NCBI GenBank assembly: GCA_963817525.1
Contig: CAWFOU010000001.1
Span: 928,001 to 992,000 of the forward strand
DNA: 64,000 bases
Source: an uncultured archaeon
GTDB lineage: Archaea > Thermoproteota > Nitrososphaeria > Nitrososphaerales > Gagatemarchaeaceae
Direction: 5' to 3'
Both the position numbers and the translations under genes were made by a program. Below are positions 1,441-24,168 of this stretch, one piece after another. How positions within the stretch are numbered: position 1 is the stretch's first letter; the number at the start of each line of letters is the position of its first letter. The notes below the pieces were generated by a model. It saw only the letters and a program-made list of their open reading frames with translations, did no database searches and was not told where the DNA came from.

Positions 1441-2022
1441 CTAGGCCGCTCTTGCGGCCGCCTTCGCCTGCTTCTGGACCTTGTTGACCTCTTCCTCCAC
1501 CCACTCGAGGGCGCCGAGGAAGGGCTGGCGACAGGTCACGCCTATCTTGCCCATCGATATGCCGTGGCCGAGGCTCACCGCGGTGATCCTCACTCGTACC
1601 TTGCTCCCGACCTTGAGGGTCCGCTTGCTCTGGGAGGCGGTGATCACGCCCGACTTTACGTCGCTCGTGAGGTAGTCGTCCATGATCTGGCTCAGGTGCA
1701 GGAGGGCGTCCGTCGGGCCTATCCTGACGAAGGCCCCAAAGTCCGTGATCTCGACTATCTCTCCCTCCACTATCTCCTGCTTGAGCGGGAAGAACGAAAG
1801 GACCTGGAACCTCACCTTGTGGTAGGTGGCGCCGTCGCCGGGGATTATCTTCCCTATCTTGTCTACCTTCACGTTGTTGACGAGGACGAGGTACCCGTTC
1901 TCGGGGCTGATGGTGCTCTCGTACTTTTGCTTGAGCAGGTCGAGCGCCACGTTCTCGAGGTTGTTTCCGAATTTGTCGGGGGGGACCCTGACCACGTCTT
2001 CAAGTTCGACTAGTTGAAACAT
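1441..2022 (-). CDS. rpoE: RNA polymerase subunit Rpo7 (RpoE')
   Basis: DVVRVPP, IIPGDGATY, S1 domain FGAFVRIGPTDALLHLSQIMDD. Confidence 0.95.
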   Translation of the reverse strand: MFQLVELEDVVRVPPDKFGNNLENVALDLLKQKYESTISPENGYLVLVNNVKVDKIGKIIPGDGATYHKVRFQVLSFFPLKQEIVEGEIVEITDFGAFVRIGPTDALLHLSQIMDDYLTSDVKSGVITASQSKRTLKVGSKVRVRITAVSLGHGISMGKIGVTCRQPFLGALEWVEEEVNKVQKQAKAAARAA

Positions 2023-2135
2023 GATATACCCTAGGTAGAGTTTCGGCCTTTTCCAACCCTAGAAAAAGATTTCGATGTCTGTCGGATTTCAGTTCGCAAA
2101 GGGCAGAGCGAAGTGCGTTTCCACCCTGCAAACGC

Positions 2136-2558
2136 TCAGGCGTAGACCCGTCCGCCCCGGAGGGTGATAACCGTCTGCACCCGGGAGGCGCGCAGCCTCT
2201 CCGCCAGCTCGGAGTCGATGGTCGCGACCGCGGCCCCCTCGCGAAGGGCGTAGGAGATTATCTCGTCGTCGGGCTTGCCCTTGCCGTCGGGCTCCAGGGC
2301 GAAGGCCCCCTCGTCGAGCAGCTTGAGCGCGAGGGCGGCGAACTTGCCCGTCTTGTCCCTCTTGGCTGCGAGCCGGGCGAGCTCGTCGCGCACCGACGCG
2401 AGGATTACTGGGGTGAAGCCGCCCAGCTTCTCGGCGATGTCCCCGCTCCAGGGGGTGGGGTGCTCCATCACGGCGACGAGGAAGCTGCTGTCGAAAGCCA
2501 CGGGCCGCTTCTTTCGGGCGGTTTGGGCGCGGGCCTTAGCGGACGAGGCCTGAGCCAA
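2136..2558 (-). CDS. PIN-domain protein (Fcf1/Utp24-like)
   Basis: FDSSFL, DDEII and VATIDSEL PIN motifs; typical location downstream of eIF2g; start uncertain. Confidence 0.8.
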   Translation of the reverse strand: MAQASSAKARAQTARKKRPVAFDSSFLVAVMEHPTPWSGDIAEKLGGFTPVILASVRDELARLAAKRDKTGKFAALALKLLDEGAFALEPDGKGKPDDEIISYALREGAAVATIDSELAERLRASRVQTVITLRGGRVYA

Positions 2559-3806
2559 TCAGGCGCCACCTCTCGGCGATCCTCCTGCTAATCGCGACGC
2601 GGCCCCCGTCCTCGGCGACGACGGGCTTCTTCAGGTCGAGCTCCGCCACCGTGTCTCGGGCGGAGGTGACCGTCCCCAGCGTGGAGGCGGTCCCGACGTT
2701 GAGCCTGAGCGTCTCGGTCGCCTTCACCTTGTCCACCCTGATGAGCGCGGACGACCCGACGGCCTGGTCGAAGAGCTGGAGGTCGACGGTGATGTGCGTC
2801 CTCACGGGCGGCAGGCTGCCGGGCTTGCCCACGAGATTGCCCACGAGGACGTCGCCCTTTGTGAGGCGAGGGTCGAGGGCGGTCCCAAGGGCGATGAGGC
2901 CTCCGGGGCCTACCTTCTGCGTCATGCCCGCCCCCGTCCCGAGGCTCGCGACCTGGGTGGCGATCGGCGTGAACTTGCCGCTCCTCTCCTCGAGGAGGCC
3001 CGGCGATATCTCGATCTCGTCCCCGACGCTGATCTCCCCGCGCACGAGGCTCCCCCCGAGGACTCCCCCGACGAGGGCCTTTACGTCCGCGCCTGGCCTG
3101 TTGACGTCGAAGCTCCTCAGGATGTACATCTGGGAGGCGGCGGTGAGGTCGTGCTTGGGGGTCGGGATGTTCTCCTCTATGGCCTCTATCAGCGCGTCGA
3201 TGTTGATCCTGTTCTGGGCGGAGACCGGGATGACGGGGGCGTCGGCGCCCACCGTGTTGGCGAGGAACTGCTTGATCGCCTCGTAGTTCTTCTTCGCCCC
3301 CTCGGAGTCCACCCTGTCTATCTTGTTCTGGACCACGACCATCTTCTTCATCCCCAGCATCTGCAGCGCGAGCATGTGCTCCCTGGTCTGTGGCATGGGG
3401 ACGGGCTCGTTGGCGGTGATGACCAGGATGACCCCGTCCATCAGCGCGGCCCCCGCGAGCATGTTGGTCATCAGGCTCTCGTGGCCGGGGCAATCCACGA
3501 AGCTCACCGCACGGAGGAAGTTGGTGGGCTTGCCGCATATTGGGCAGACGGGCGAGGTGGAGTACGCCTCAGGAGGGGGCGTCTCGGGGCACTTGTAAAA
3601 GGCCGCGTCCGCGTACCCGACCTTGATGGTGATCCCCCGCTTAAGCTCCTCGCTGTGGGCGCTCGCCCAGACCCCGGTTATTGCTTGCACGATGGAGGTC
3701 TTCCCACTATCTACGTGACCTGAGTGCCGATGTTGCACTCGGGCTGCTTGGGAATCAGCCGCTGGACCTCTGCGGGCGGCGCGGTCGTGGACTGCTGTTG
3801 GGACAT
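2536..3806 (-). CDS. eif2g: Translation initiation factor aIF2 gamma, frameshift near 3724
   Basis: GHVDSGKT, EELKRGITIKVGYA, DCPGHE, QNKID, WRLIG; the N-terminal QPECNIGT lies in a shifted frame starting at ATG 3806. Confidence 0.93.
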
Positions 3807-4605: not shown

Positions 4606-7600
4606 CTAAAAGCCGTAGAGCATGTCCTTCGCGGAGCGGATGGCGACTATCTCTTCGAGGGCCTGCAGGTCGTCCGGGGAGAGGGTGGACGCGTACTTGC
4701 CCTTTAGGATCTTCGCGTCGTGGCTCGTGGGGATCGAGTAGAGGTCCTCGTCCTCCTTGATCGTCCTGCCGAGGGTGGGGCCCTTCACCGAGATGGCCAC
4801 CTGCATACCCTTCCCGGCCTCCGCGATGTTCTTGCCGTTCTCCTGGATCTGCTCGACCACTCCCACCTCCTCCCCCTTCTGGTTCATCAGCCGCACCTTG
4901 GGGCGTAGCCGCCCCGCGAGGACCTCGACCCCGAAGACCGCGGGGTCGTTCCTCCTGAAGAAGTTCCCCTTCAGGGCCTTCACCTTGGCGGGCATCGTCA
5001 CGCTCTGGAGCGCGGTCCTCTCGTCCTCCTCCTTCTCCTTCGCGGCCCACTGGACGTATCCCTCGACCGCGTCGTAGATGACCTCGGAAGTGATTATCTG
5101 GACGCGCTCCGCGCTCTCCTTCGCCTCGGGGAGGACCTTGACGTCGAACCCGATTATCGCGCCCAGGTATGGGTCGCGCTCGGCGACCGCCTCGGCCTCG
5201 ATTATCTCCGCCTTGGAGATGTCCCCGATGTCCGCTAGGCGGACGGGGATGGCCCGCTCCTCGAGCATCTTGAGGAGCGCCTCCAGGCCCCCGATGCTCC
5301 CCGCCTTGACGACGACCCCGACGCTGTCGCTCTTCCGCCTCAGGGTGCTCAGGTCCTTCTCGAGGTCTGTCTTCAGCGTCGCGAACTCGGCCTCGTCCCG
5401 GAAGGTCATGACCGCGGTCCCCGGGATGACCCCCTCGAGGTCGGGGCTGACCAGCTTGACTCCGGCGGCGGCGTAGACCTCTTCCACGGCGGTGAACTTG
5501 TCCCTCGGGTCGCGCATCTCGTCGAGGGGCTTGGGCATGAAGAGTGCCTTGACCTTGGTCTGCGCGGCCCCGTCGCGCTTCACTATCACTATCTTGTCGC
5601 CCACGTGGAGGGTCCCGTCGGTGAGGATGATGTTCGCGGTCTGCCCCATCCCGACCTCCTCCTGGAGCTCGAGGACTATGCCCTTCGACCTCCCCGAGAC
5701 GTCGGCCGCGCCCTGGGCGAGCTTGGTGGTCAGGAACTGCTGGGCGAGCCCGATGAGGACGGCGAGGAGCTCGGGGATGCCCACGCCGTACCTCGCTGAG
5801 ACGGGGACTATCGAGACCTGCTTGCGAAAGTCCTTGATGCGATAGAAGGCCTCCGCCTGGAAGCCAGCCCTGGAGAGCCCGCCGACGACGTTGTAGAGGC
5901 GCTCCTCGAGCTCGTCGTTCCACTCAGGGGGCTGCAGCTTGAGAGCGGCGGACAGCGCGATGCTCCCCTTGCCCGTCACGGTGTCCTTTCGCCAGCCCCT
6001 TATCATGTCCACCTTGTTGAGGGCGACCAGGAAGGGGACGTGCCTCTCCTTGAGTATCTCGATGCTCTCCATCGTCTGGTTCTCGAGGCCCTTCAGGACG
6101 TCGACCAGGAGGATGGCGATGTCAGCGGCAGAGCCGCCGCGCATCCTCAGGTTGGAGAAGACCTCGTGCCCCGGCGTGTCGATGACGAGCAGGCCCGGGA
6201 TCTTCAGCGAGCCCCCCGTTTTCGAGAGAAGGGGGCCGCATATCGCCTCGAGTGTCTCCATCGGGAAGAAGCTGGCGCCGATCTCCTGGGTGATCCCGCC
6301 CGCCTCGCGGGCCTGGACCCCCGTCCCTCTTATTTTGTCGAGAAGAGATGTGTTGTGGATTATCAGGCTGTTGCCAAGGAAGTTGTGATAGTCGTCGACC
6401 GTGAAGTCGTAGACGTCGCATGCCCCTTCGATCACCTGCAAGCCCGAGACTTGGACGCTGGCGTAGTTGTTGATGGTCTCGACGAGAGCCTTGCTGTCGT
6501 AGCCGGGGAGCGCTTGGGGGAGGTGCCTTACGACGTCCCGGCTTATCTTCGAGCGCGTCTGAAAGGTGCTGATCTGGAAGTGCTCGTCCCAGTTGACCCT
6601 CTGACCTTCCCTGATCTTCCTTAGGAACTCACCGGGTATGGGGGTGATGTCGAAGACCCGGTTCGTCTCGGATGTCTGCGTCTTGATCTTTGCTGCCAGC
6701 ATCTTCTCTTTTTCCCCAAAGCCGATCTGGTCGACGAAAGCCCTGACGTTGTCCCTCCCGCTGATGAATACCTCTCTGCTATGGCCGCCCTTCCCGAAAT
6801 AGGCCAGGCAGCCGAACCTCGCGAGCAGCATCGGCAGTTGCCTCATCAGCTCCGCGCCCTCGCACCCGACCCCGATGTTCCTCCCTTCCTGGACGAAACC
6901 TTCCGCGTCGAAGAATCCGCGGAGGAACTTTGCGACGACGGGATCCGGCATCATCGAGATGGTGTCCGGGACGTGGATTGACCTGCTCTTGTCAGCCGTC
7001 GGATAGTCGAAGACCTCCACGAGGAACCGGTGAAGCGACTTGCCACCCTTGTGGCTCACGATGAAGCTCGTCCGGCGCCATGCCTTGCTCGCTCCCACGC
7101 CAAAGGGCAGTTCGAGGTTGATGAGGAAAAGGTCCATCAAGTAAGTGGACGTGTTGGCAAGGTACCCAGATTCCGCGACGCCGTCCCCGAAAAGCAGGCC
7201 GACGAGATACGCTAGGGCCTCGAATCCCTTCTCGTCCTTTGGCACCGCTATCCACGGTGATCGGTGGGAGGCGCGTCTCTTTCGAGAGGCGAACTTCACG
7301 CCTTCGACTTGGTCGTAGGCGTCGGCCAGGGAGATCCCCACCTCCTTGACCGCGTTCCGAAACACGCTCGCTCTGAAGTATCCTTGCTCGAGGTGAAAGA
7401 TGAACTGGGAGTCCCCGAGGTCCTTCCCAACCCTTTGCCTTCGTCCGTTCGAGAAGGCGACCAGCTTGGCTACGAGAGGTTGGGAGGCTCTGACCAGGAA
7501 ATCGTCGGAGAGTCTGGCCAGGATCCTCGACTTGACGGCCTCTAGCCCGTTTGAGGTGACGTTGACCCTCGCGGGGATCACAAGGTGGTCGCCTAGCGAC

Positions 7601-7989
7601 AGACGCTGGGCTTCTACATAGGAGAGCTCCCCGTTGGCAGACATGGCGAGGAACTTGTGCTCGGGGGTGCACCTGACGGCGTAGCCTGCTTTGGTCGTGA
7701 CCTCGATAAGCCGGTCGGCCCTGAGCTTCCAGACGTGCGACGCTCGTTTGGCTATGACCCTACCTTCCGGCGAGGTCGATAGTAGTTCCAAACCCTTCGC
7801 TTCGAAGGAGACGCCGTCTGGTCTTTCGATAGGTTGGCCTGACTTGAATTCCTGGAAGAGCGCGTCCGCCCTGGCCACCCTACCGTCCGCAAGTTGGATG
7901 AGAGTGTCAGCGCTGACGCACTTGCCGGCATCCGTGTGCCCCAGCACGACTACGACTGGTTGTCGGAGTTTTTGTTCTGACTGGGACAT
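4606..7989 (-). CDS. infB: Translation initiation factor aIF5B (IF2), intein-containing
   Basis: LRQPVVVVLGHTDAGK|intein|TSLLDKIRGT, EAGGITQEIGA, IDTPGHE, NKVD. Confidence 0.96.
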   Translation of the reverse strand: MSQSEQKLRQPVVVVLGHTDAGKCVSADTLIQLADGRVARADALFQEFKSGQPIERPDGVSFEAKGLELLSTSPEGRVIAKRASHVWKLRADRLIEVTTKAGYAVRCTPEHKFLAMSANGELSYVEAQRLSLGDHLVIPARVNVTSNGLEAVKSRILARLSDDFLVRASQPLVAKLVAFSNGRRQRVGKDLGDSQFIFHLEQGYFRASVFRNAVKEVGISLADAYDQVEGVKFASRKRRASHRSPWIAVPKDEKGFEALAYLVGLLFGDGVAESGYLANTSTYLMDLFLINLELPFGVGASKAWRRTSFIVSHKGGKSLHRFLVEVFDYPTADKSRSIHVPDTISMMPDPVVAKFLRGFFDAEGFVQEGRNIGVGCEGAELMRQLPMLLARFGCLAYFGKGGHSREVFISGRDNVRAFVDQIGFGEKEKMLAAKIKTQTSETNRVFDITPIPGEFLRKIREGQRVNWDEHFQISTFQTRSKISRDVVRHLPQALPGYDSKALVETINNYASVQVSGLQVIEGACDVYDFTVDDYHNFLGNSLIIHNTSLLDKIRGTGVQAREAGGITQEIGASFFPMETLEAICGPLLSKTGGSLKIPGLLVIDTPGHEVFSNLRMRGGSAADIAILLVDVLKGLENQTMESIEILKERHVPFLVALNKVDMIRGWRKDTVTGKGSIALSAALKLQPPEWNDELEERLYNVVGGLSRAGFQAEAFYRIKDFRKQVSIVPVSARYGVGIPELLAVLIGLAQQFLTTKLAQGAADVSGRSKGIVLELQEEVGMGQTANIILTDGTLHVGDKIVIVKRDGAAQTKVKALFMPKPLDEMRDPRDKFTAVEEVYAAAGVKLVSPDLEGVIPGTAVMTFRDEAEFATLKTDLEKDLSTLRRKSDSVGVVVKAGSIGGLEALLKMLEERAIPVRLADIGDISKAEIIEAEAVAERDPYLGAIIGFDVKVLPEAKESAERVQIITSEVIYDAVEGYVQWAAKEKEEDERTALQSVTMPAKVKALKGNFFRRNDPAVFGVEVLAGRLRPKVRLMNQKGEEVGVVEQIQENGKNIAEAGKGMQVAISVKGPTLGRTIKEDEDLYSIPTSHDAKILKGKYASTLSPDDLQALEEIVAIRSAKDMLYGF
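6352..7920 (-). mobile_element. Intein (523 aa) with LAGLIDADG homing endonuclease in the aIF5B P-loop
   Basis: Starts CVSADT, block B TPEHKF, ends VYDFTV...HNFLGNSLIIHN followed by T; LVGLLFGDG and FLRGFFDAEG motifs. Confidence 0.95.
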
Positions 7990-9778: not shown

Positions 9779-10360
9779 TTGACGTCCGCCGAGCCGGCCG
9801 CGCAGCCCATAACCATCATAGAGCTCATGTCGGGCTGGGCCAGGGACAACGGAGTCATACTCAGGAGCAGGATACCCGCAGAGAAGAAGGTCCTGGCCGC
9901 GATAATGTGCGCATCGGGCTACACCTATCGTGACACGTCGAAGATACTCGGCGGGATCTCCCATGTCGCGGTGCACGACGCCCACAAGAACTTGATGGCG
10001 GCCCTGCCTCCTCTGCAAAAGAAGAGGAGGGAGGTGAACATAGAGGAGAACGTGGTCGACCTCAACGCCGAGACGAAGGCGGTGATTTGGCTGGCGAGGG
10101 ACGAAGACAGCGGGGAGATACTGTCCTTCCGCTGCTCCACGACCAGGTCTCCCATGGACCAGAAGAAGTTCATCGACTCCGTTCTCTCGGTGTGCACCGA
10201 AAGGCCCCTCCTCAAGGTGGAAAGGGGTTCGAGCTATCCGAATTCTCTGAGGCAGCTGGACCTATATTTCCAGATAGTGCCGACGGGCACCCCCATCAGG
10301 AAGAGGATAACGAGCTTCTTCCTAGGCGCTTCTGAGCCCGAGCCCAAAACGAAGAGCTAG
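9779..10360 (+). CDS. IS6-family transposase-like protein with HTH; DDE residues apparently substituted
   Basis: GYTYRDTSKILGGISHVAVH (HTH), IWLARDEDSGEIL...STTRS, VERGSSY, all resembling archaeal IS6 transposases by eye. Confidence 0.65.
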   Translation: MTSAEPAAQPITIIELMSGWARDNGVILRSRIPAEKKVLAAIMCASGYTYRDTSKILGGISHVAVHDAHKNLMAALPPLQKKRREVNIEENVVDLNAETKAVIWLARDEDSGEILSFRCSTTRSPMDQKKFIDSVLSVCTERPLLKVERGSSYPNSLRQLDLYFQIVPTGTPIRKRITSFFLGASEPEPKTKS

Positions 10361-10453: not shown

Positions 10454-10819
10454 TCAAGCGGGAGGACATGCCCTCTCCAACACCATGCCTATCGCTCTGG
10501 TCCTTGCGGTCGCCATCTCCCCCTCCGTGCCGCACCTCGAGTAGCAGTCTGAGGCCCTCTGCACGAAGAAGAGCGCCTGCGAGACCTTGCGAGGCACGGG
10601 GGACGCGTCGCCCGCGAGGGTGAGCTGACCCGCCGTCTCGTACCAGAAGCCCGCCTCGGCGTTCTCGCCGACCTTCTCGAGGTCGCCCGCTATCCATTCG
10701 CAGACGCTGTCCCACTCGGAGGAGGCCTCGATGTCGTCGAGGACGCTCATCAATGATCTTACCGCACTACGATAGTCCCCCGTCTGCTCCAGCGCGAGGG
10801 CTCGCGATACTTGACCCAT
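10454..10819 (-). CDS. Helical-repeat (TPR/SNAP-like) hypothetical protein
   Basis: 121 aa with A..Y..A helical repeat pattern; codon usage like the host. Confidence 0.55.
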   Translation of the reverse strand: MGQVSRALALEQTGDYRSAVRSLMSVLDDIEASSEWDSVCEWIAGDLEKVGENAEAGFWYETAGQLTLAGDASPVPRKVSQALFFVQRASDCYSRCGTEGEMATARTRAIGMVLERACPPA

Positions 10820-10917
10820 GTGCGAGGGACAAGTGCCGCGGCGCGTCTAAGATTCCGCGCCTCAACTATATTCGAGTAAGCGGTTAGGAAATTGTGATGG
10901 TAAGCGAGCTTTTTCGG

Positions 10918-11337
10918 CTAGGAGAAGTAGGCGTTGCACTCCCTGTCGAAGGACTCTCTCGAGTCGGAGGCATGGATCGCGTTGTCCGTCAGGCCTATCG
11001 CGAGGTCTCCCCTTATCGTGCCCGGGGCGCTCTCCCAGCTCTTGGTGGCGCCGACCATCCTCCTCACGGTCGCGACGGCGTCCCTGCCCTGGATGACCGC
11101 GCCGACGGTCAGCCCCCCGGAGAAGGAGGCGACCAGCTCCCCGAAGAAGGGGCGCTCCTTGTGGACGCTGTAGAACTCCTCTGCCTTGGCCTTTGTCATG
11201 GTCTGCGCTTTCAGCTGGAGGATCTTCATCCCCCTCTTCTCGAACCTGCCGAGTATCTCGCCGACGAGCCCGCGGGCGACCGCGTCGGGCTTTACGACGA
11301 TGAGCGTCTTCTCGTTGGGGTCTGGCTGCGACGACAT
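10918..11337 (-). CDS. ndk: Nucleoside diphosphate kinase
   Basis: EKTLIVVKPDAV, PGTIRGD, NAIHASDS. Confidence 0.97.
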   Translation of the reverse strand: MSSQPDPNEKTLIVVKPDAVARGLVGEILGRFEKRGMKILQLKAQTMTKAKAEEFYSVHKERPFFGELVASFSGGLTVGAVIQGRDAVATVRRMVGATKSWESAPGTIRGDLAIGLTDNAIHASDSRESFDRECNAYFS

Positions 11338-11347
11338 GTCGATCTCC

Positions 11348-11533
11348 CTATCTGCTGAGCTTGTTTCTGCGCGCCCACTTTAGCTTGCGGGGGTCCCTCT
11401 TCAGCTTGAGGTCGTTCGTCTTGCACTTGTTCGAGCAGAAGCTCTTGGAGGTCCCGTCGTTCATCACGAGGAGGATGCCCGTCCCCAGGTGGACGTCCTT
11501 CCCGCAGAAATGGCAGCGCTTGGGGGTATACAA
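11348..11533 (-). CDS. rpl24e: 50S ribosomal protein L24e
   Basis: CHFCG...GTG...FCSNKC...RDPRKLKW. Confidence 0.95.
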   Translation of the reverse strand: MYTPKRCHFCGKDVHLGTGILLVMNDGTSKSFCSNKCKTNDLKLKRDPRKLKWARRNKLSR

Positions 11534-11661
11534 TTCAAACTGTCACCGAGTCTTCCTAGATTGAGAATCGAGGCCTAGAGCGGTCTCCATATAAATATAG
11601 AGAGTAATGAAAGCGCGAGAAACCGGGTGGGTGCCTAAATAGTCTCTCGAACGAATAAGCT

Positions 11662-12927
11662 GTGGCAGCCACAGACGACGTCGAGGACAAGGTGGCAGAC
11701 CACCTTGTCAAGAACGGCGACGACCTCCATTTCACTAGGTGGTTCTGGAAAGGGTGCGAACCCCTTCCAAGAGATGTGGCGGCCTATTCCAAATTCGCCG
11801 GGTTGGTTTCAGACTATTCGAAAGGAATCAAAATAGTCCCGGAGGGCATGGGGGTGGGATTGGGTTCGTCCGTATCGTGGGCCACTCAGACTACCATGCC
11901 CAAGCTTGGACACTATCTTACCGCCTTCATCAAGCTGGGAACTCCGGGGGAGGGAATGGTCTGGCTGACCATGGAGTGTACCCACGGTCAAGCTATTCCC
12001 GTGGGCCCTTTCCTTCAGGTCCCAAGCGAGGTTCGGTCTTGGAGAGATATTGAGCAGGCTTTGGCCCAAATCGGGTCTCCGGCAGACCACAATCCGCGAT
12101 TCAGCAAGGCGTATCTTTTTGGGTTTCTCGTGGGGATAATCATTGGCGACGCTCACAAGCCGAAACAAGGTCACAGCCATAGGCACATCAATGTCACACT
12201 AAGCAAAAGGTACGAGACGAATCTCTCAATCGGAGACTTCGCGACTTATTGCGCCAATCAACTTGGACTGCGGATGGAGAGAAAGCCGGATCTGCCAAAG
12301 CCAGAGGACAAGCCCTACGGATTCTATGTTTGGGCCTCCCAGTCCTCGCCTTTTGTCGACTGGATTTTCAATGTGGTCCTTGGCTTGGAAGATGGTCAAC
12401 ACACGACCTACGACGCTGTTCGGATGGACTGGGCATTTGAAGCGCCCCTCGACTTCCGACTAGGCATCATACACGGAATCGCCGAATCAGACGGCTCCGT
12501 GAGCGTGGCGAGTCAGACGGTCGAGTTCTGGGTGATTCCTGACTGGGACTTCATGATCAAGCTGCTCGCCACCTTTGGACTCAAGGGGTTTCGAAACAGA
12601 GAAGCCGTCTCGTTGGTAAAGACGCAGGCAACAGATTCCTTCAGGGTTCCGGTCTTCGCGGCGCATCTTCGGACGACCAGGTACGCCCTCCTGGAGCTTA
12701 TGGCGACGACGAGAAAGCTTGACAAGAAGGAAAGAATTCCCTCTGACGTTCGACAAGAGATAGTTCGACTCGCCGCGGAGGGTTGGTCGATTCCGAAGAT
12801 CATTGTTGAAATCGCTAGAACGCGGAAGCTACTAGTGTCCTTCGAGGCAGGACAGCGCTGGGCGAGGAAAAGCGGTAAGTATCAGCCTAAATCTAGGCAG
12901 CCTTCAAAAGAGGAAAATATTACGTAA
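11662..12927 (+). CDS. Free-standing double-motif LAGLIDADG endonuclease-like protein with C-terminal HTH
   Basis: FLVGIIIGDAH and IIHGIAESDGSV motifs; C-terminal IVRLAAEGWSIPKI...QRW; lower GC; antisense within an r-protein operon. Confidence 0.75.
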   Translation: MAATDDVEDKVADHLVKNGDDLHFTRWFWKGCEPLPRDVAAYSKFAGLVSDYSKGIKIVPEGMGVGLGSSVSWATQTTMPKLGHYLTAFIKLGTPGEGMVWLTMECTHGQAIPVGPFLQVPSEVRSWRDIEQALAQIGSPADHNPRFSKAYLFGFLVGIIIGDAHKPKQGHSHRHINVTLSKRYETNLSIGDFATYCANQLGLRMERKPDLPKPEDKPYGFYVWASQSSPFVDWIFNVVLGLEDGQHTTYDAVRMDWAFEAPLDFRLGIIHGIAESDGSVSVASQTVEFWVIPDWDFMIKLLATFGLKGFRNREAVSLVKTQATDSFRVPVFAAHLRTTRYALLELMATTRKLDKKERIPSDVRQEIVRLAAEGWSIPKIIVEIARTRKLLVSFEAGQRWARKSGKYQPKSRQPSKEENIT

Positions 12928-12948
12928 AATCAGACACGAAATTGTAAA

Positions 12949-13176
12949 TCACCTGATTTTTCTTGCCTCGCGTTCAGTATCTCGCAACAATAGTATGTCC
13001 GCGAGCCTGATGGGCCCCTTTACGTTCCTGGTGAGGATGCGGCCCTTCTCCTTCCCCTCTAGTATCTTTACCCTGACCTGGGTGATCTCGCCCGCCACCC
13101 CGGTGCGCCCGACTATCTGGACAACCTCCGCTGGGGTGATCGACTCTGCGCTCTGTTTGCTGCTGCCGCTGCTCAA
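12949..13176 (-). CDS. rps28e: 30S ribosomal protein S28e
   Basis: [19 protein letters not shown]...RNVKGP...EREARK. Confidence 0.97.
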
Positions 13177-13182
13177 CTATCG

Positions 13183-13584
13183 TTACGCCTTTGCTGTGGC
13201 TGCCTGTGGGGCGCCCCTGATCCTGGACAGCTCCTGGGTGACTTGGTCGAGGATGGCCTGCCCCTCCCCCGCCTCGGTCACTGCCGCCGCGGCGGTCGAG
13301 ACGTCGATGCCTATCGCGGGGCCGATCTGGTCCTTTGAGGAGACGAACACGTAGGGTATCTTCCTTTCATCGCATATTATCGGCAGGTGCGCCACGACCT
13401 CCGGGGGCTGGACGTCCTCGGCGATTATCACGAGCTTGGCTAACCCCCGCTCCACCGCCTTGGTGGTCTCGTTGGTACCCTTCCTGACCTTTCCGGTCCT
13501 AGACGCCTGTCTGAGGACTTCGTAGGCTGCTTCGGAGACCTCTTTCGGGGTCTCGAACTTTACAAAATAGGGTTTCGGGGTCAT
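13183..13584 (-). CDS. rpl7ae: 50S ribosomal protein L7Ae
   Basis: KGTNETTKAVERG, IAEDVQPPEVVAHLP. Confidence 0.97.
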   Translation of the reverse strand: MTPKPYFVKFETPKEVSEAAYEVLRQASRTGKVRKGTNETTKAVERGLAKLVIIAEDVQPPEVVAHLPIICDERKIPYVFVSSKDQIGPAIGIDVSTAAAAVTEAGEGQAILDQVTQELSRIRGAPQAATAKA

Positions 13585-13650
13585 ATTTCAAAATCTCCCA
13601 GCCCTGCCCTTTTCGTCGGATACTTAAGCCTTGATAGGTCGCGCGGAGCG

Positions 13651-15408
13651 TCAGGGGTGCGCGAGGATGCAGCGCCCGGGGCCGTCCACCCTCACGAACC
13701 CGTAGCGCGGGAACTGGACGATGTCCCCCTGCCCGAGGTTGGAGAAGGCGGCCTCCGCGTACCCCTTCCTGACCTTCAGGCTGTCGGGGTTCGGAGTCTC
13801 GTCGTCGAGGAAGAGCTCGGAGGGCTCGAGGACCTTGACGTCCATCTTGGAGACGTCGTCCACGACCCACTGGACCTTGCGGAGCTCCAGGAGCCGCTCG
13901 TCTCCGACGAACTCGGCCTGGGACTCCTTGCCCCTCTTGGTTAGCCTCACGTTGTATAGGTCCATGAGCCTGAAGACGTCGCCAGCCTTCATCGCGGCGA
14001 CGTCCGCGCGCGGCACCCAGAGGGTCGGGTTGGCGGGCACGTGGACCTCCTTCTTTCCCAGGCTCTCGTAGGTGGGGTGCATGGGCAGGACCAGGTCCCT
14101 GGAGGGACCGGCCTTCACCTTCAGCTGGATGGGGTCGGGGACGAAGAAGATCCTGATGGAGATGGGGTCGAGTATCTTCCTGTTGACCGCGAAGAGGAGG
14201 CTCCAGTCGAAGGTGTGCTCGGTCTTGCCGTACCCGACCTGGGCGGTGAACTGGCGGATGGCCTCGGGGACGATCCCCCGGCGCTTCACGCCCTCTATCG
14301 TCGGCATCCGGGGATCGTCCCAGCCTGTGACGACCTTCTTCTCGACGAGGGGCCGGAGGAGCCTCTTCGAGACGGGGGTGCCCTTGAAGTTGAAGCGCGA
14401 GAACTGCTCGACCACGACGTCGGGGAAGCCGAGGAGCTCCCTGATCTTGTCCTGGAGGGAGACGTGGAACTCGGAGCTCCTGAGGACGTGGGTGACGCCG
14501 CAGAGCTTGTCCTCGACCACGACCTCAAAGTCGTAGACGGGCCAGACGACGTACTTGGTACCCACCTGCGGGTGGGAGGCGGTGATGACCCTCAGGATGT
14601 TCGGGTCCCTCAGGGAGTGGTCGAGGTCCTCCATGTCGCCCTTGAGCCTGATGACCCACTCGCCCTCCTTGTACTTGCGCCCTAGCATCCCGTCCCAGAC
14701 GGCGACGTTGGCCTCCACGGTGCGCCCCCTGTGCTCGCATCCCTTGCCCTCGAACCTCAGCTTCTTGACGAGGTCGGCGGGGCACGAGCAGGCGTAGGCC
14801 GCCCCCATCTCGATGAGCCTCCTCGCGTGGTAGTAGAGGACCTCCATGTCGGAGGAGACGCTCTTCTCGTGGTCCCATCTGATCCCAACCCAGGTGTACC
14901 CGTCCCTGAAGGACTGGTAGTACTCCTCCTTCACCTTCCTGGGGTTGGTGTCCTCGAACCTGAGCCAGAGCTCTCCCGCGTACATGTCCCTGTACGCGGC
15001 GTTGATCACCCCCGCCATCGCGTGCCCGATGGTCATGTACCCGGACGGCTCGGGCGGGAGCCTGAGGACGACCTTCCCCTTCACCGCGTTGGGGAGAGGG
15101 GGGAACTGGCTCGCGTGGGCCTTCTCCTCGGCCTTCTGCGTCGCCCTCTTCTGGTCCCGGGCGGCCAGCGCGTCCGGGTAGCTCTCTTCGAGGAGCTTCT
15201 GCTGCTCTTCGGGGGAGAGGGAGTTCACGCGCTTGACCACATCCGCGGCCGCGGCGGCGACCTCCTTCGGCATCGACCTCAGGTCGGGCGACTCGCCCAT
15301 GCTCTTGCCCACCACCGCCCCCCGGTCGGCCACCCCCGCGTGGGAGACCGCGTTCAGGAGGGCGTTCCTCTCCATCGCCTTGAGCTGCTCTGGGGTGAGT
15401 GATGTCAT
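13651..15408 (-). CDS. gltX: Glutamate--tRNA ligase
   Basis: RLPPEPSGYMTIGH, RFEDTNP, WDDPRMPT, QFPRYGFVRVD; start placed at ATG 15408. Confidence 0.95.
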   Translation of the reverse strand: MTSLTPEQLKAMERNALLNAVSHAGVADRGAVVGKSMGESPDLRSMPKEVAAAAADVVKRVNSLSPEEQQKLLEESYPDALAARDQKRATQKAEEKAHASQFPPLPNAVKGKVVLRLPPEPSGYMTIGHAMAGVINAAYRDMYAGELWLRFEDTNPRKVKEEYYQSFRDGYTWVGIRWDHEKSVSSDMEVLYYHARRLIEMGAAYACSCPADLVKKLRFEGKGCEHRGRTVEANVAVWDGMLGRKYKEGEWVIRLKGDMEDLDHSLRDPNILRVITASHPQVGTKYVVWPVYDFEVVVEDKLCGVTHVLRSSEFHVSLQDKIRELLGFPDVVVEQFSRFNFKGTPVSKRLLRPLVEKKVVTGWDDPRMPTIEGVKRRGIVPEAIRQFTAQVGYGKTEHTFDWSLLFAVNRKILDPISIRIFFVPDPIQLKVKAGPSRDLVLPMHPTYESLGKKEVHVPANPTLWVPRADVAAMKAGDVFRLMDLYNVRLTKRGKESQAEFVGDERLLELRKVQWVVDDVSKMDVKVLEPSELFLDDETPNPDSLKVRKGYAEAAFSNLGQGDIVQFPRYGFVRVDGPGRCILAHP

Positions 15409-22707: not shown

Positions 22708-24079
22708 TGGCCTTTCGCAATCTAGCCCTTGAGATTTCATTGGGGCTTAAGTATCAAACGGACGTATTGCGTTCGAATCGGCAGTTTGAATGAGCCCTTC
22801 GCGGCGAAGAATCGAGAGATATCGATGGCAAGACGGGAGACCATCGGAAGGCATCGGGAGATGTCTTGTAAGACGTACGAGTTGAAACTAGACAAATCTC
22901 ATCTCTCGAACGAGAATCTTCATGCGCTCCACCGCCTTTTCTTGGAGGCCAAATGGTTCTACAACGCCATGCTGACCTCCCCGGGAGGGCCTAACGCATT
23001 CGATTACAAGCAGAAGGACGTAGTCGTACTCAACAAGAAACGAGGACCAGAAGTTCGTCGAATCGCGACATTGACCTCCCACATGCGTCAGTCTATCATC
23101 GATAGGGCGAAGCAAGCCATCAGGGGGCTCGCCGTTCAGAAGAAGAGGCACAGAGTTGGGGCGCTCAGGTTTACCAGCCAAATCTCATCAATACCTCTGA
23201 AGCAATATGGTCGAACATACGACATCAGGGGAGAAAGGGTGAAGATTCAAGGCATTAAACAGCCTCTTAGGGTAAGAGGGACTGATCAAATCCCTGAAGA
23301 CGCGGAGTTTACGTCCGCAGACCTGATCTTCCGGAGCGGAGACTACTTCCTCCATGTCACGGCGTACGAGAATCCCAAGACTGAGACTTCAACGAAGACG
23401 CCAAAGAAACGGGCAGTAGGCATAGATGCCGGAATCAGAAACCAACTCACCCTCTCTAACGGAGTTATCGTCAACTCGGATATTGACCTCCCCGCTCGAC
23501 GCATCGGGCGCCTCCAAAGGGAGCTGTCACGACGGGGGTTGAAACGAGGGAAGAATTGGTCGAAGACCAAACTCAAGCTAGACTTGACATACAATAAGAC
23601 GACAAATCGTCGCCGCGACGTAAGGCACAAGATTGTGAGCTGTCTCACGTCAAACTATGACGCTATAGCTACCCAACGCGACAATGCCAATTGGTGGCAG
23701 AAAATGTGGGGACGCCGGATAGCTTCCTCAGCGATTGGTGGGATAACAAGAGACCTGAGGGCAAAGCCTCACTTTCCCGTCGCGATCGAGAGGTTTGTTC
23801 CTACGACGAAACAATGTTGCGAATGTGGAAAGATTCGCTCGGTAGGTCTGGACGAGCGGACCTACAGCTGCGACACGTGCGGGCTGGTCATAGACCGCGA
23901 TCTCAATGCAGCCACGAACATGTGGCTAAGGATACCTGCGGAGCGCAGGGAATCTACGCCTGCAAACACGAAGGCCGCTACGGAGGAGATGATCGGATAT
24001 CTCAACAATATCCCATTTACTTCCGCAAGCCGTGTGGAGGAAGCAGGAAGCCACCAGTTCAAAACTGGTGGTAGCTCAC
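22708..24079 (+). mobile_element. IS1341-like solo tnpB element (left boundary uncertain)
   Basis: Right-end hairpin CCACCAGTT-CAA-AACTGGTGG (24051-24071) followed by TAGCTCAC; imperfect hairpin near 22724-22747 as a possible left end. Confidence 0.65.
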
Positions 24080-24168
24080 GCTCTGCGGCCCCTTCTTCCG
24101 CCCTTCTTTCGCGTGGTGTCGTGGGGGATCGGTGTCGCGTCCTCGATCCTACCGATCCTGAACCCTGA
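22786..24168 (+). CDS. tnpB: TnpB-like RNA-guided endonuclease (IS200/IS605 family, no tnpA)
   Basis: VGIDAG (RuvC-I), [10 protein letters not shown]...YSCDTCG Zn finger, [10 protein letters not shown] (RuvC-III); start uncertain. Confidence 0.9.

Follow-up and report, generated by a model that had tools for sequence, protein, structure and literature searches.

The window analysed here is a stretch of 64,000 nucleotides (nt) from an uncultured archaeon of the family Gagatemarchaeaceae (Thermoproteota; Nitrososphaeria; Nitrososphaerales), corresponding to positions 928,001 to 992,000 of contig CAWFOU010000001.1 in GenBank assembly GCA_963817525.1. It carries an open reading frame (ORF) of 421 amino acids that lies between the ribosomal protein genes rps28e and rpl24e. 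We read this ORF as a free-standing, monomeric, two-motif LAGLIDADG homing endonuclease gene whose fixed home is the 3' end of rps28e, and we give this reading a probability of about 0.6.

The ORF is convergent to rps28e and divergent from rpl24e, and it divides the local genes into the pairs rpl7ae-rps28e and rpl24e-ndk. The order rpl7ae-rps28e-rpl24e-ndk is contiguous, with a spacer of about 10-20 nt, in seven of nine genomes from other families of the order and also in four genomes of the archaeon's own family. The remaining two of the nine have spacers of 96 and 217 nt. Because the operon is uninterrupted in these relatives, the ORF is regarded as an insertion. An earlier sequence-only reading of this DNA had described a lower-GC ORF that breaks up a normally contiguous operon, and the layout, the relatives and the base composition all agree with that description. 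The ORF has a GC content of 0.54 and a third-codon-position GC content (GC3) of 0.63, compared with 0.58-0.65 and 0.75-0.92 for its neighbours.

Four sets of soil-metagenome contigs cover positions 10900-13600 in short, low-depth pieces that are identical across both junctions, and there is no joint that skips the gene. Since such contigs lose rare variants, they are silent on empty alleles in the population. A scan for sigma-70 promoters and terminators is uninformative for an archaeon.

The ORF and its product

No Pfam family, including those of inteins and WhiA, matches the 421-residue protein at E<=0.1, and NCBIfam and PHROGs return nothing usable. A phmmer search of the whole library recovers 305 clusters of related proteins at 50% identity (E<=0.001). 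A search near the length of the protein gives 157 proteins, all of them unnamed or "hypothetical", and the names point to Thaumarchaeota/Nitrososphaerales. Among 22 distant or long homologues scanned, 14 reach the Pfam cut-off for LAGLIDADG_3 within the segment aligned with the second motif of our protein, and most have helix-turn-helix (HTH) matches of the HTH_23 type on the N-terminal side of the core. Thus, because the protein itself lacks a Pfam match, its membership in the LAGLIDADG group is established by sequence through transitive homology only. Distant family members have one to several HTH_23, HTH_28 or HTH_3 matches N-terminal to the core, and a precomputed HTH_23 match exists for some orthologues.

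There are only four invariant columns in an alignment of 53 sequences that have 21-70% identity to the query, and these are D163, W224, W257 and D277. Each of the two aspartates is the acidic residue at the end of one LAGLIDADG helix, and together with K166 they are kept in all 26 orthologues found at the rps28e site. An AlphaFold2 model made with the 53-sequence alignment (predicted local distance difference test score of 92.5, predicted template modelling score of 0.90) has the pseudo-symmetric alpha-beta-beta-alpha-beta-beta-alpha double-domain fold. When this model is compared by Foldseek with the Protein Data Bank (PDB), there are 49 matches at E<=0.001, and those listed are LAGLIDADG endonucleases, a LAGLIDADG maturase or WhiA. 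They include PI-SceI (E 1.8e-5) and I-DmoI (E 9.3e-5, with a template modelling (TM) score of 0.67 on the target and a root-mean-square deviation (rmsd) of 4.0 Å), and further PI-PfuI, I-Tsp061I, the bI3 maturase and WhiA, with E-values ranging from 2e-5 to 8e-4 when bI3 is set aside. A profile search of PDB sequences also has PI-SceI as its best match, at an E-value of 0.13 that is not significant, and no other PDB sequence aligns to the family profile over both motifs.

On the strength of the predicted structure, we regard the LAGLIDADG fold as settled. The sequence-only reading, which had made its case depend on this fold, had reported two LAGLIDADG-like helices followed by a C-terminal HTH, and the motifs, the model and the structural matches to LAGLIDADG endonucleases recover both features. 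The invariant D163/D277 pair argues for nuclease catalysis by this protein. To judge from the model and from the HTH matches of distant family members, the N-terminal helical domain is probably DNA-binding.

Most known archaeal LAGLIDADG enzymes are borne by introns or inteins, and the ORF could be another of these if its host intron or intein had been overlooked. Such an origin would be in keeping with the presence of the bI3 maturase among the fold matches and with a LAGLIDADG_3 intein that lies 4 kb off in an IF-2-type GTPase gene. However, Pfam finds no intein splicing motifs in the protein, and the gene is antisense to rps28e and rpl24e and stands between two complete genes, just as had been reported from the sequence. 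There is also no group I or group II intron or other Rfam family at E<=1 in positions 10800-13700, except for two chance-level matches. We find an overlooked intron or intein hardly credible.

Table 1. Features at the rps28e-rpl24e locus (positions in the window; residues are those of the 421-residue protein)
Feature	Positions	Strand	Evidence or remark
ndk	10918-11337	-	Pfam NDK, E 1e-44
rpl24e	11348-11533	-	Pfam Ribosomal_L24e, E 9.7e-16; TTG start
Divergent control region	11534-11661		128 nt, rpl24e start to endonuclease start; right end of the insert
Shine-Dalgarno-like element GGTGA	11544-11548	-	10 nt upstream of the rpl24e TTG start
TATA-like sequence ATATAAATATA	11589-11599		minus strand reads TTTATAT, starting 62 nt before the rpl24e start
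Putative endonuclease ORF, 421 aa	11662-12927	+	ORF call; GTG start, in-frame stop 2 codons upstream
N-terminal helical domain, residues 1-95	11662-11946	+	model helices 2-18, 36-53, 67-74, 81-92
First LAGLIDADG motif YLFGFLVGIIIGDAHK, residues 151-166	12112-12159	+	includes D163 and K166
Second LAGLIDADG motif LGIIHGIAESDGSV, residues 267-280	12460-12501	+	includes D277
C-terminal HTH unit, residues 361-404	12742-12873	+	model helices 361-372, 377-388, 394-404
Gap between the convergent stops of the endonuclease gene and rps28e	12928-12948		21 nt; left insert junction
rps28e, 75 aa	12949-13176	-	Pfam Ribosomal_S28e, E 7.4e-31
Last 16 codons of rps28e	12952-12999	-	low GC3
rpl7ae	13183-13584	-	Pfam Ribosomal_L7Ae, E 6e-29

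A fixed address, its empty sites and relatives at other gene ends

The genomes compared are mostly metagenome-assembled, and several of them are error-prone (indels) or incomplete. There is a family match in 19 of the 22 genomes searched from the archaeon's own genus (g1). A class-wide profile search finds a match in two of three other genomes of the own family (f1) and in none of 297 genomes from other families of the class, and the endonuclease family is found in 51 of 97 f1 genomes. Orthologues at the same site share 43-68% identity overall and 48-68% within g1.

At all 24 verified junctions, which come from five genera, the endonuclease gene abuts the 3' end of rps28e in convergent orientation. 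These junctions comprise every g1 allele for which the junction was in hand (14 of 14) and all ten of the strongest hits outside g1, which come from genera g2, g20, g21 and g86. In genus g20, where 4 of 55 genomes have an rps28e-site orthologue, a distance of about 3.7-4.0 kb separates rps28e from rpl24e in 14 genomes, as judged by spacing. The endonuclease gene of the four g20 genomes that bear it is always located between rps28e and a block of other genes (4/4). Thus, the constant neighbour of the endonuclease gene is the 3' end of rps28e and not rpl24e.

The g20 block, read at four loci (L113-L115 and L125), consists of two unknown genes and two with recognizable domains, one encoding a VWA-domain protein and the other a GTPase of the tubulin/FtsZ family (Pfam Tubulin, E 4.8e-10, at the one locus scanned by Pfam). 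Cargo of 1-2.5 kb is located between the endonuclease start and rpl24e in G015, G007, G016, G010, G009 and G001 (L087-L092). By eye, this cargo encodes secreted or membrane proteins, a phosphoesterase-like protein (G010 and G001) and ParB-like and winged-helix ORFs (G016). Other fillers of the spacer are found in G343, G363 and G385. The filler of G363, a 237-residue ORF with the string 'LAYGDG' at the same site, was considered as a relative and rejected, since hhalign gives a probability of 0.35% for a link to the family and Pfam has no match. The site, with its varied cargo, behaves as a small variable islet.

These contents raise the possibility that the spacer downstream of rps28e is simply an insertion hot spot, and that the endonuclease gene is a passenger that arrived by illegitimate recombination or with islets and without any homing. 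The differing cargo of the six genomes, the 3.7-kb VWA/tubulin-family block of many g20 genomes, the fillers of the three others and an unrelated ORF that stands in place of the gene in G008 would all be expected of such a place. However, the endonuclease gene always abuts rps28e in one orientation (24/24 junctions) and precedes the block at all four g20 loci that have both. Its paralogue lineages are equally faithful to two other gene ends, and its catalytic pair is conserved. Thus, we consider a passenger without homing to be quite improbable.

Precisely empty sites, where 9-16 nt separate the rps28e stop from the rpl24e start, are present in two g1 genomes (G019 and G022), in one g20 genome (G354) and in one genome of genus g82 (G336). 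A comparison with relatives that lack the insert had been proposed as a check on the sequence-only reading, and these sites show that the gene is not conserved at this position in all relatives. Other alleles are in between. In G014 and G017 only the C-terminal ~97 residues are left, within open frames of 116-119 amino acids, and these HTH-only frames may be independent truncations or may encode a stand-alone HTH product. The two genomes (L021/L026 and L019/L029) are not sisters, and the short database proteins P0171, P0181, P0188, P0200, P0217 and P0242 cover the same C-terminal HTH part.

In G008, which is closest on the SecY tree, the endonuclease gene is replaced by a Thr-rich secreted-type ORF. 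This allele keeps 75 nt at the rpl24e end (about 11530-11604 of the window), including the TATA string, with 80% identity. Six more genomes have short spacers of 92-213 nt that lack the homing endonuclease (HE) gene. Among the 26 orthologues, 22 are uninterrupted and four (G002, G011, G005 and G010) have stops or frameshifts, for which assembly error is possible. On the SecY tree both g1 clades have the gene, and one of them also contains, in scattered positions, the empty, remnant and replaced alleles.

There are two more copies of the family in the window genome (G000), with 35% and 29% identity. One is a paralogue of 452 amino acids that is convergent to the EF-1alpha gene and lies 91 nt behind it (locus L002, C1:193925-197680, with the paralogue at 1480-2838(-) and the end of EF-1alpha at 1389(+)). 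Beyond this paralogue there is a 115-residue acidic ORF, followed at 3458-3529(+) of the same locus by an orphan duplicate of the final 24 codons of EF-1alpha. This copy has 87.5% protein identity and has lost its stop, and the duplication runs a few tens of nucleotides past the position of the stop. The EF-1alpha address was found at three loci, the others being in G352 and G377, where the distance is 7 nt, and in g1, 7 of the 15 genomes examined have an element at this site.

The other copy is a paralogue of 395 amino acids that lies, again convergent, 127 nt behind a radical-SAM gene (locus L003, C10:9042-12896, with the paralogue at 1465-2652(-)). The full-length g20 orthologue of this host gene carries an HMPTM zinc ribbon. 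The radical-SAM address is represented by six loci, namely that of the window genome and five from other genera (L103, L105, L106, L107 and L111). At this site, G338 (L105) has a broken orphan of 67 residues with 85% identity plus a third copy of 25 residues, and G000 has decayed traces of a duplicate end. The paralogues are located 7-130 nt from the host stop, with the exception of one at about 470 nt that has an ORF in between. A survey of where homologues are inserted, which had also been suggested, thus returns the same rps28e address in five genera and two further addresses for the paralogues.

A few other features of the window are recorded here. The intein mentioned above (Intein_splicing and LAGLIDADG_3) lies at the P-loop of an IF-2/aIF5B-type GTPase gene at 4606-7989(-). 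As judged by the N-terminal sequences of the ORFs, G009 and G016 share this intein, and G015, G007, G010 and G001 lack it. An ORF of 193 residues at 9779-10360(+), between ftsZ and ndk, has a weak match to IS6 transposases (NCBIfam, E 1e-7, far below the cut-off), and this ORF is also found in G009. There is a 479-residue ORF of OrfB_IS605/TnpB-like type at 22729-24168(+).

The two ends of the insert

The right end of the insert carries the leader of rpl24e-ndk. A TTTATA(T/G) string is located about 45-62 nt upstream of rpl24e in all 27 non-empty alleles and in none of the four empty alleles. Most non-empty alleles also have, about 10 nt upstream of rpl24e, a Shine-Dalgarno sequence of the GGTGA type, which is GGTGAT in g1 and GCTGAT, GGTGGT, GGTGTT or GGTAG in most others. 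In the empty allele of G019, the Shine-Dalgarno sequence overlaps the rps28e stop (CGG TGA T). The likeness of the rpl24e leader to the end of rps28e is explained by the GGTGA element. The leader is also found in HE-less alleles, and all six of the short-spacer alleles were fetched and have a TTTATA-type box, which indicates that the leader goes with any split of the operon and not with the endonuclease alone.

The most fitting role for the TATA box is that of promoter for the severed rpl24e-ndk genes, as its position and conservation suggest. Since it is nearly palindromic, it may also drive the endonuclease gene. The sequence-only reading had pointed out a strong TATA-like sequence near position 11589 and had proposed that the insert supplies a promoter for the downstream genes. 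The first is present as described, and the second is supported by the distribution of the box, with the reservation that alleles without the endonuclease share it.

The left end is more variable. The normal rps28e stop is kept in 11 of the 24 occupied alleles, including that of the window. In the other 13, which represent all five genera, the stop is missing and the protein gains a hydrophobic tail of 19-23 residues with a grand average of hydropathy of 1.9-2.7 (L028, L031, L033, L034, L037, L094-L096 and L098-L102; see also L120 and L128). In 12 of these 13 alleles no more than about 50 nt lie between the end of the tail and the endonuclease stop, and in the outlier, G334, the figure is 180 nt. 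The tails are recognizably similar across genera. In G339 a stop is followed by a tail that is still readable, and the HE-less short-spacer alleles of G341 and G382 keep the tail. Because the tail accompanies the cassette, the original insertion is placed at the stop codon itself.

The last codons of rps28e in the window switch abruptly to A/T-ending forms, as the sequence-only reading had observed. There are 42 codons ending in G or C among the 50 for residues 10-59 and only 7 among the 16 for residues 60-75 (Fisher p=0.003). When alleles are pooled, the corresponding counts for the last 16 codons are 182/352 in occupied alleles versus 130/192 in others, and the upstream part of the gene is alike in the two groups (848/1100 and 448/600), where it must be kept in mind that the pooled alleles are phylogenetically non-independent. 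An A/T-rich mosaic haplotype, ATA CTA TTG TTG CGA GAT at codons 61-66, is shared by G000, G015, G020, G007 and G010, which belong to both species clades. In the pair G003-G021 (L014 and L016), where site counts are small, the synonymous divergence (dS) ranges from 0.32 to 0.49 across the endonuclease gene, rpl24e and ndk, and it is 1.06 for rps28e and 2.15 for rpl7ae. This jump suggests a recombination breakpoint at the junction of rps28e and the endonuclease gene.

The drop in GC3, the mosaic haplotype and the jump in dS fit recombination tracts that end in the 3' end of rps28e. As to the mapping of a co-conversion tract, which had been put forward as a check, these flank signals are weak, and no orphan fragment accompanies them. 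The further claim that the insert brought in a recoded, resistant copy of the rps28e end is only suggestive. In its favour is the lower GC3 of occupied alleles. Against it, the empty allele of G019 has the A/T-rich haplotype with two synonymous third-position changes, and a GC-rich rps28e end is found in the occupied alleles of G012 and G018 as well as in the empty allele of G022. At EF-1alpha both copies of the gene end are close to the native sequence of relatives, which indicates that there is no recoding there either.

These features of the two ends can be arranged into a simple scheme for the putative endonuclease. Perhaps, the enzyme cuts HE-less alleles at or near the rps28e stop or the rps28e-rpl24e junction, and repair by recombination from an occupied allele would copy the cassette in. 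The insertion itself would disrupt or change the target. On the left, the cassette might be tolerated because rps28e stays readable, either with its normal stop as it has here or with a short hydrophobic tail as in many relatives. On the right, the TATA box and the Shine-Dalgarno leader at the far end would keep rpl24e-ndk expressed. In this scheme we infer nuclease activity, the target, homing as the mode of spread and the promoter function.

Descent, interpretation and known systems

The two closest pairs of genomes give a consistent picture of how the gene evolves. For G003-G021, the ratio of nonsynonymous to synonymous divergence (dN/dS) is 0.18, and the dS is 0.32 for the endonuclease gene and 0.35 for ndk. 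For G001-G011, dN/dS is 0.20, and the proportion of synonymous differences (pS) is 0.23 for the endonuclease gene and 0.25 for SecY. In both pairs its synonymous divergence matches that of genes nearby or elsewhere in the host, which indicates vertical descent under purifying selection. The remaining pairs are saturated at synonymous sites, and differing codon bias gives plateaus of pS of about 0.8 versus about 0.5, which means that no age of the endonuclease gene relative to the host genes can be derived from them.

The SecY tree divides genus g1 into two clades. The endonuclease tree within g1 has a split (support 99/96) that cuts across these clades, and the sisterhood of G013 and G016, which has a support of 99 on the SecY tree, is rejected by the endonuclease alignment (log-likelihood difference of 125, p of 1e-4 in the approximately unbiased (AU) test). 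The G013/G016 test was chosen post hoc, and two AU tests were framed after seeing the data. The tree alignments were anchored on tblastn matches to the window protein. When other genera are added, the endonuclease of G345, whose genus is g21, falls within a subclade of g1 (98/96), and the monophyly of g1 is rejected (AU p=0.0027). The L7Ae and S28e flank of G345 is 92.8% identical to that of the other g21 genome and 82-87% identical to those of g1. Thus, the flanks are of g21 type and the contig is not a misbinned piece of g1. The left junction of G345 has the string "TGA ttcctat", which is common to g1 alleles. Of all the observations, this case speaks most clearly for a horizontal arrival at the shared address.

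The overall pattern is one of mostly vertical descent, occasional transfer and repeated loss, which would be expected of a homing cycle and is not proof of one. The sequence-only reading had proposed intronless homing of a free-standing gene in a cellular chromosome. The fold and the invariant acidic pair support a free-standing LAGLIDADG enzyme, and the operon comparison supports an insertion. The distribution is also of the homing kind, since five genera use one site, some alleles are precisely empty or hold remnants, and one transfer between genera arrived at this very site.

Several observations weigh against the view that the gene is a homing endonuclease at a fixed home. The two closest pairs have diverged in step with host genes, which indicates that much of the history is vertical, and long residence under purifying selection could equally be compatible with a host function. 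The wider tree mostly follows host genus, with g2, g20 and g86 each monophyletic, and the monophyly of the endonuclease genes of SecY clade A is not rejected (AU p=0.15). The species tree to which these comparisons refer is built on the single gene SecY. Direct or inverted repeats flanking the insert were sought in positions 11300-13300, and there are only short matches at chance level. A search for an orphan 3' fragment of rps28e upstream of rpl24e gives one locus of 21 at p<0.05, which is also the chance level. Finally, the variable cargo in six genomes indicates that the site takes in DNA by other routes too.

The vertical component in particular raises the alternative that the protein is a domesticated, WhiA-like LAGLIDADG-HTH DNA-binding protein. 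In that case, an old insertion would have been kept mainly by vertical descent for a host function, such as regulation of the rpl24e-ndk promoter or of the rps28e transcript. The Foldseek matches to WhiA, which extend over about 305 columns and include the C-terminal HTH (8dy9_I, E 2.2e-4; 3hyi, 5e-4), are consistent with this, as are the dN/dS of about 0.2, the occurrence of the gene in 19 of the 22 genus genomes searched, the genus-level clades of the endonuclease tree, the HTH part that alone remains open in G014 and G017, and the 128-nt control region common to the gene and rpl24e. However, both metal-binding aspartates are invariant (53/53 and 26/26), there is no Pfam WhiA match, and close relatives display patchy occupancy, precise empty sites and decay. 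The one between-genus transfer into the same site also speaks against domestication, and the paralogues behind unrelated genes fit a site-seeking element better than a regulator of ribosomal protein genes. On balance, we regard domestication as unlikely and retain the homing endonuclease as the preferred reading.

The paralogues permit a wider proposal, which we put forward tentatively and with more doubt than confidence. The rps28e cassette may belong to an undescribed type of archaeal selfish element, in which free-standing LAGLIDADG and HTH cassettes occupy the 3' ends of essential, strongly conserved genes. There would be at least three lineages of such elements, at rps28e, EF-1alpha and an HMPTM-like radical-SAM gene, each convergent to its host gene. 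Each would bring a new gene end, in the form of the hydrophobic S28e tail or the duplicated EF-1alpha and radical-SAM ends, together with a promoter and leader for the genes cut off downstream, and the repeated breaks that they make would turn the site into a landing pad for cargo.

Archaeal homing endonucleases are known from rRNA and tRNA introns and from inteins. A literature search, made largely outside the subscription journals, listed no paper that describes a LAGLIDADG gene standing free at the locus of an archaeal ribosomal protein. If the preferred reading is true, "intronless homing" so far a matter of phages and organelles, would also operate in the chromosomes of archaeal cells. 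The case would further explain how an element of this kind does no harm, by lying convergent to its host gene and by supplying a promoter for the severed genes, and operon splitting and the birth of a promoter could be seen in a natural setting. The family, with its 305 clusters, offers several hundred divergent LAGLIDADG scaffolds that bear modular arrays of HTH units, and new nucleases with long targets could come from it. In addition, the membrane-like tail that S28e has in many of these archaea is a puzzle that is open to ribosome proteomics.

Among characterized enzymes, I-DmoI and I-Tsp061I resemble the protein in having a two-motif, single-chain core with an acidic residue at the end of each motif, and they are the best structural matches for the core (TM score of 0.60-0.67 on the target, rmsd of about 4 Å over about 200 columns). 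Sequence identity to them, however, is 12-14%, and the 421-residue protein, at twice their length, has in addition a helical domain at its N terminus and an HTH at its C terminus. Furthermore, these enzymes are intron-encoded and have an rRNA site, whereas there is no intron here and the site is the 3' end of a protein gene. PI-SceI and PI-PfuI give the best Foldseek E-values (1.8e-5) and likewise have an additional DNA-recognition region beyond the core. Unlike them, the protein has no Hint or splicing domain and is encoded by a separate gene on the strand opposite to its host gene.

WhiA, a bacterial regulator of sporulation and cell division whose LAGLIDADG domain is degenerate, has the same order of a LAGLIDADG core followed by an HTH, and the Foldseek match spans both. 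The catalytic acidic residues are lost in WhiA, whereas the acidic pair is invariant here. The present family also lacks the Pfam WhiA signature, and it is archaeal, restricted to one family, patchy and multi-copy.

In the fungal rps3 cases with LAGLIDADG genes, the displaced 3' end is duplicated, and the orphan EF-1alpha and radical-SAM ends are comparable to this arrangement. The I-OnuI and I-LtrI group of rps3, taken together with other free-standing LAGLIDADG ORFs of organelles, is similar in that a LAGLIDADG gene lies at or in the end of a ribosomal protein gene whose coding end is altered. The organellar genes are usually co-oriented with the host gene and fused to it in frame, whereas the gene described here is convergent and has its own promoter region, and the extension of S28e is a short hydrophobic tail and not an enzyme. 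Some fungal mitochondrial rps3 coding sequences are reported to continue in frame into a LAGLIDADG ORF (PMC7902536).

Besides these organellar ORFs at gene ends, the closest parallel in lifestyle would be found in T4-like phages. Their Seg and Mob endonucleases exemplify "intronless homing", wherein genes located between conserved genes probably spread because their enzymes cut a nearby HE-less allele, into which the genes are then co-converted. The position of the endonuclease gene, parked between conserved genes, is the same here. However, the phage enzymes are of the GIY-YIG or HNH type and act during co-infection, whereas the candidate described here is a LAGLIDADG protein in a cellular archaeal chromosome, its address is kept across five genera, and its three paralogous lineages occupy the 3' ends of different essential genes.

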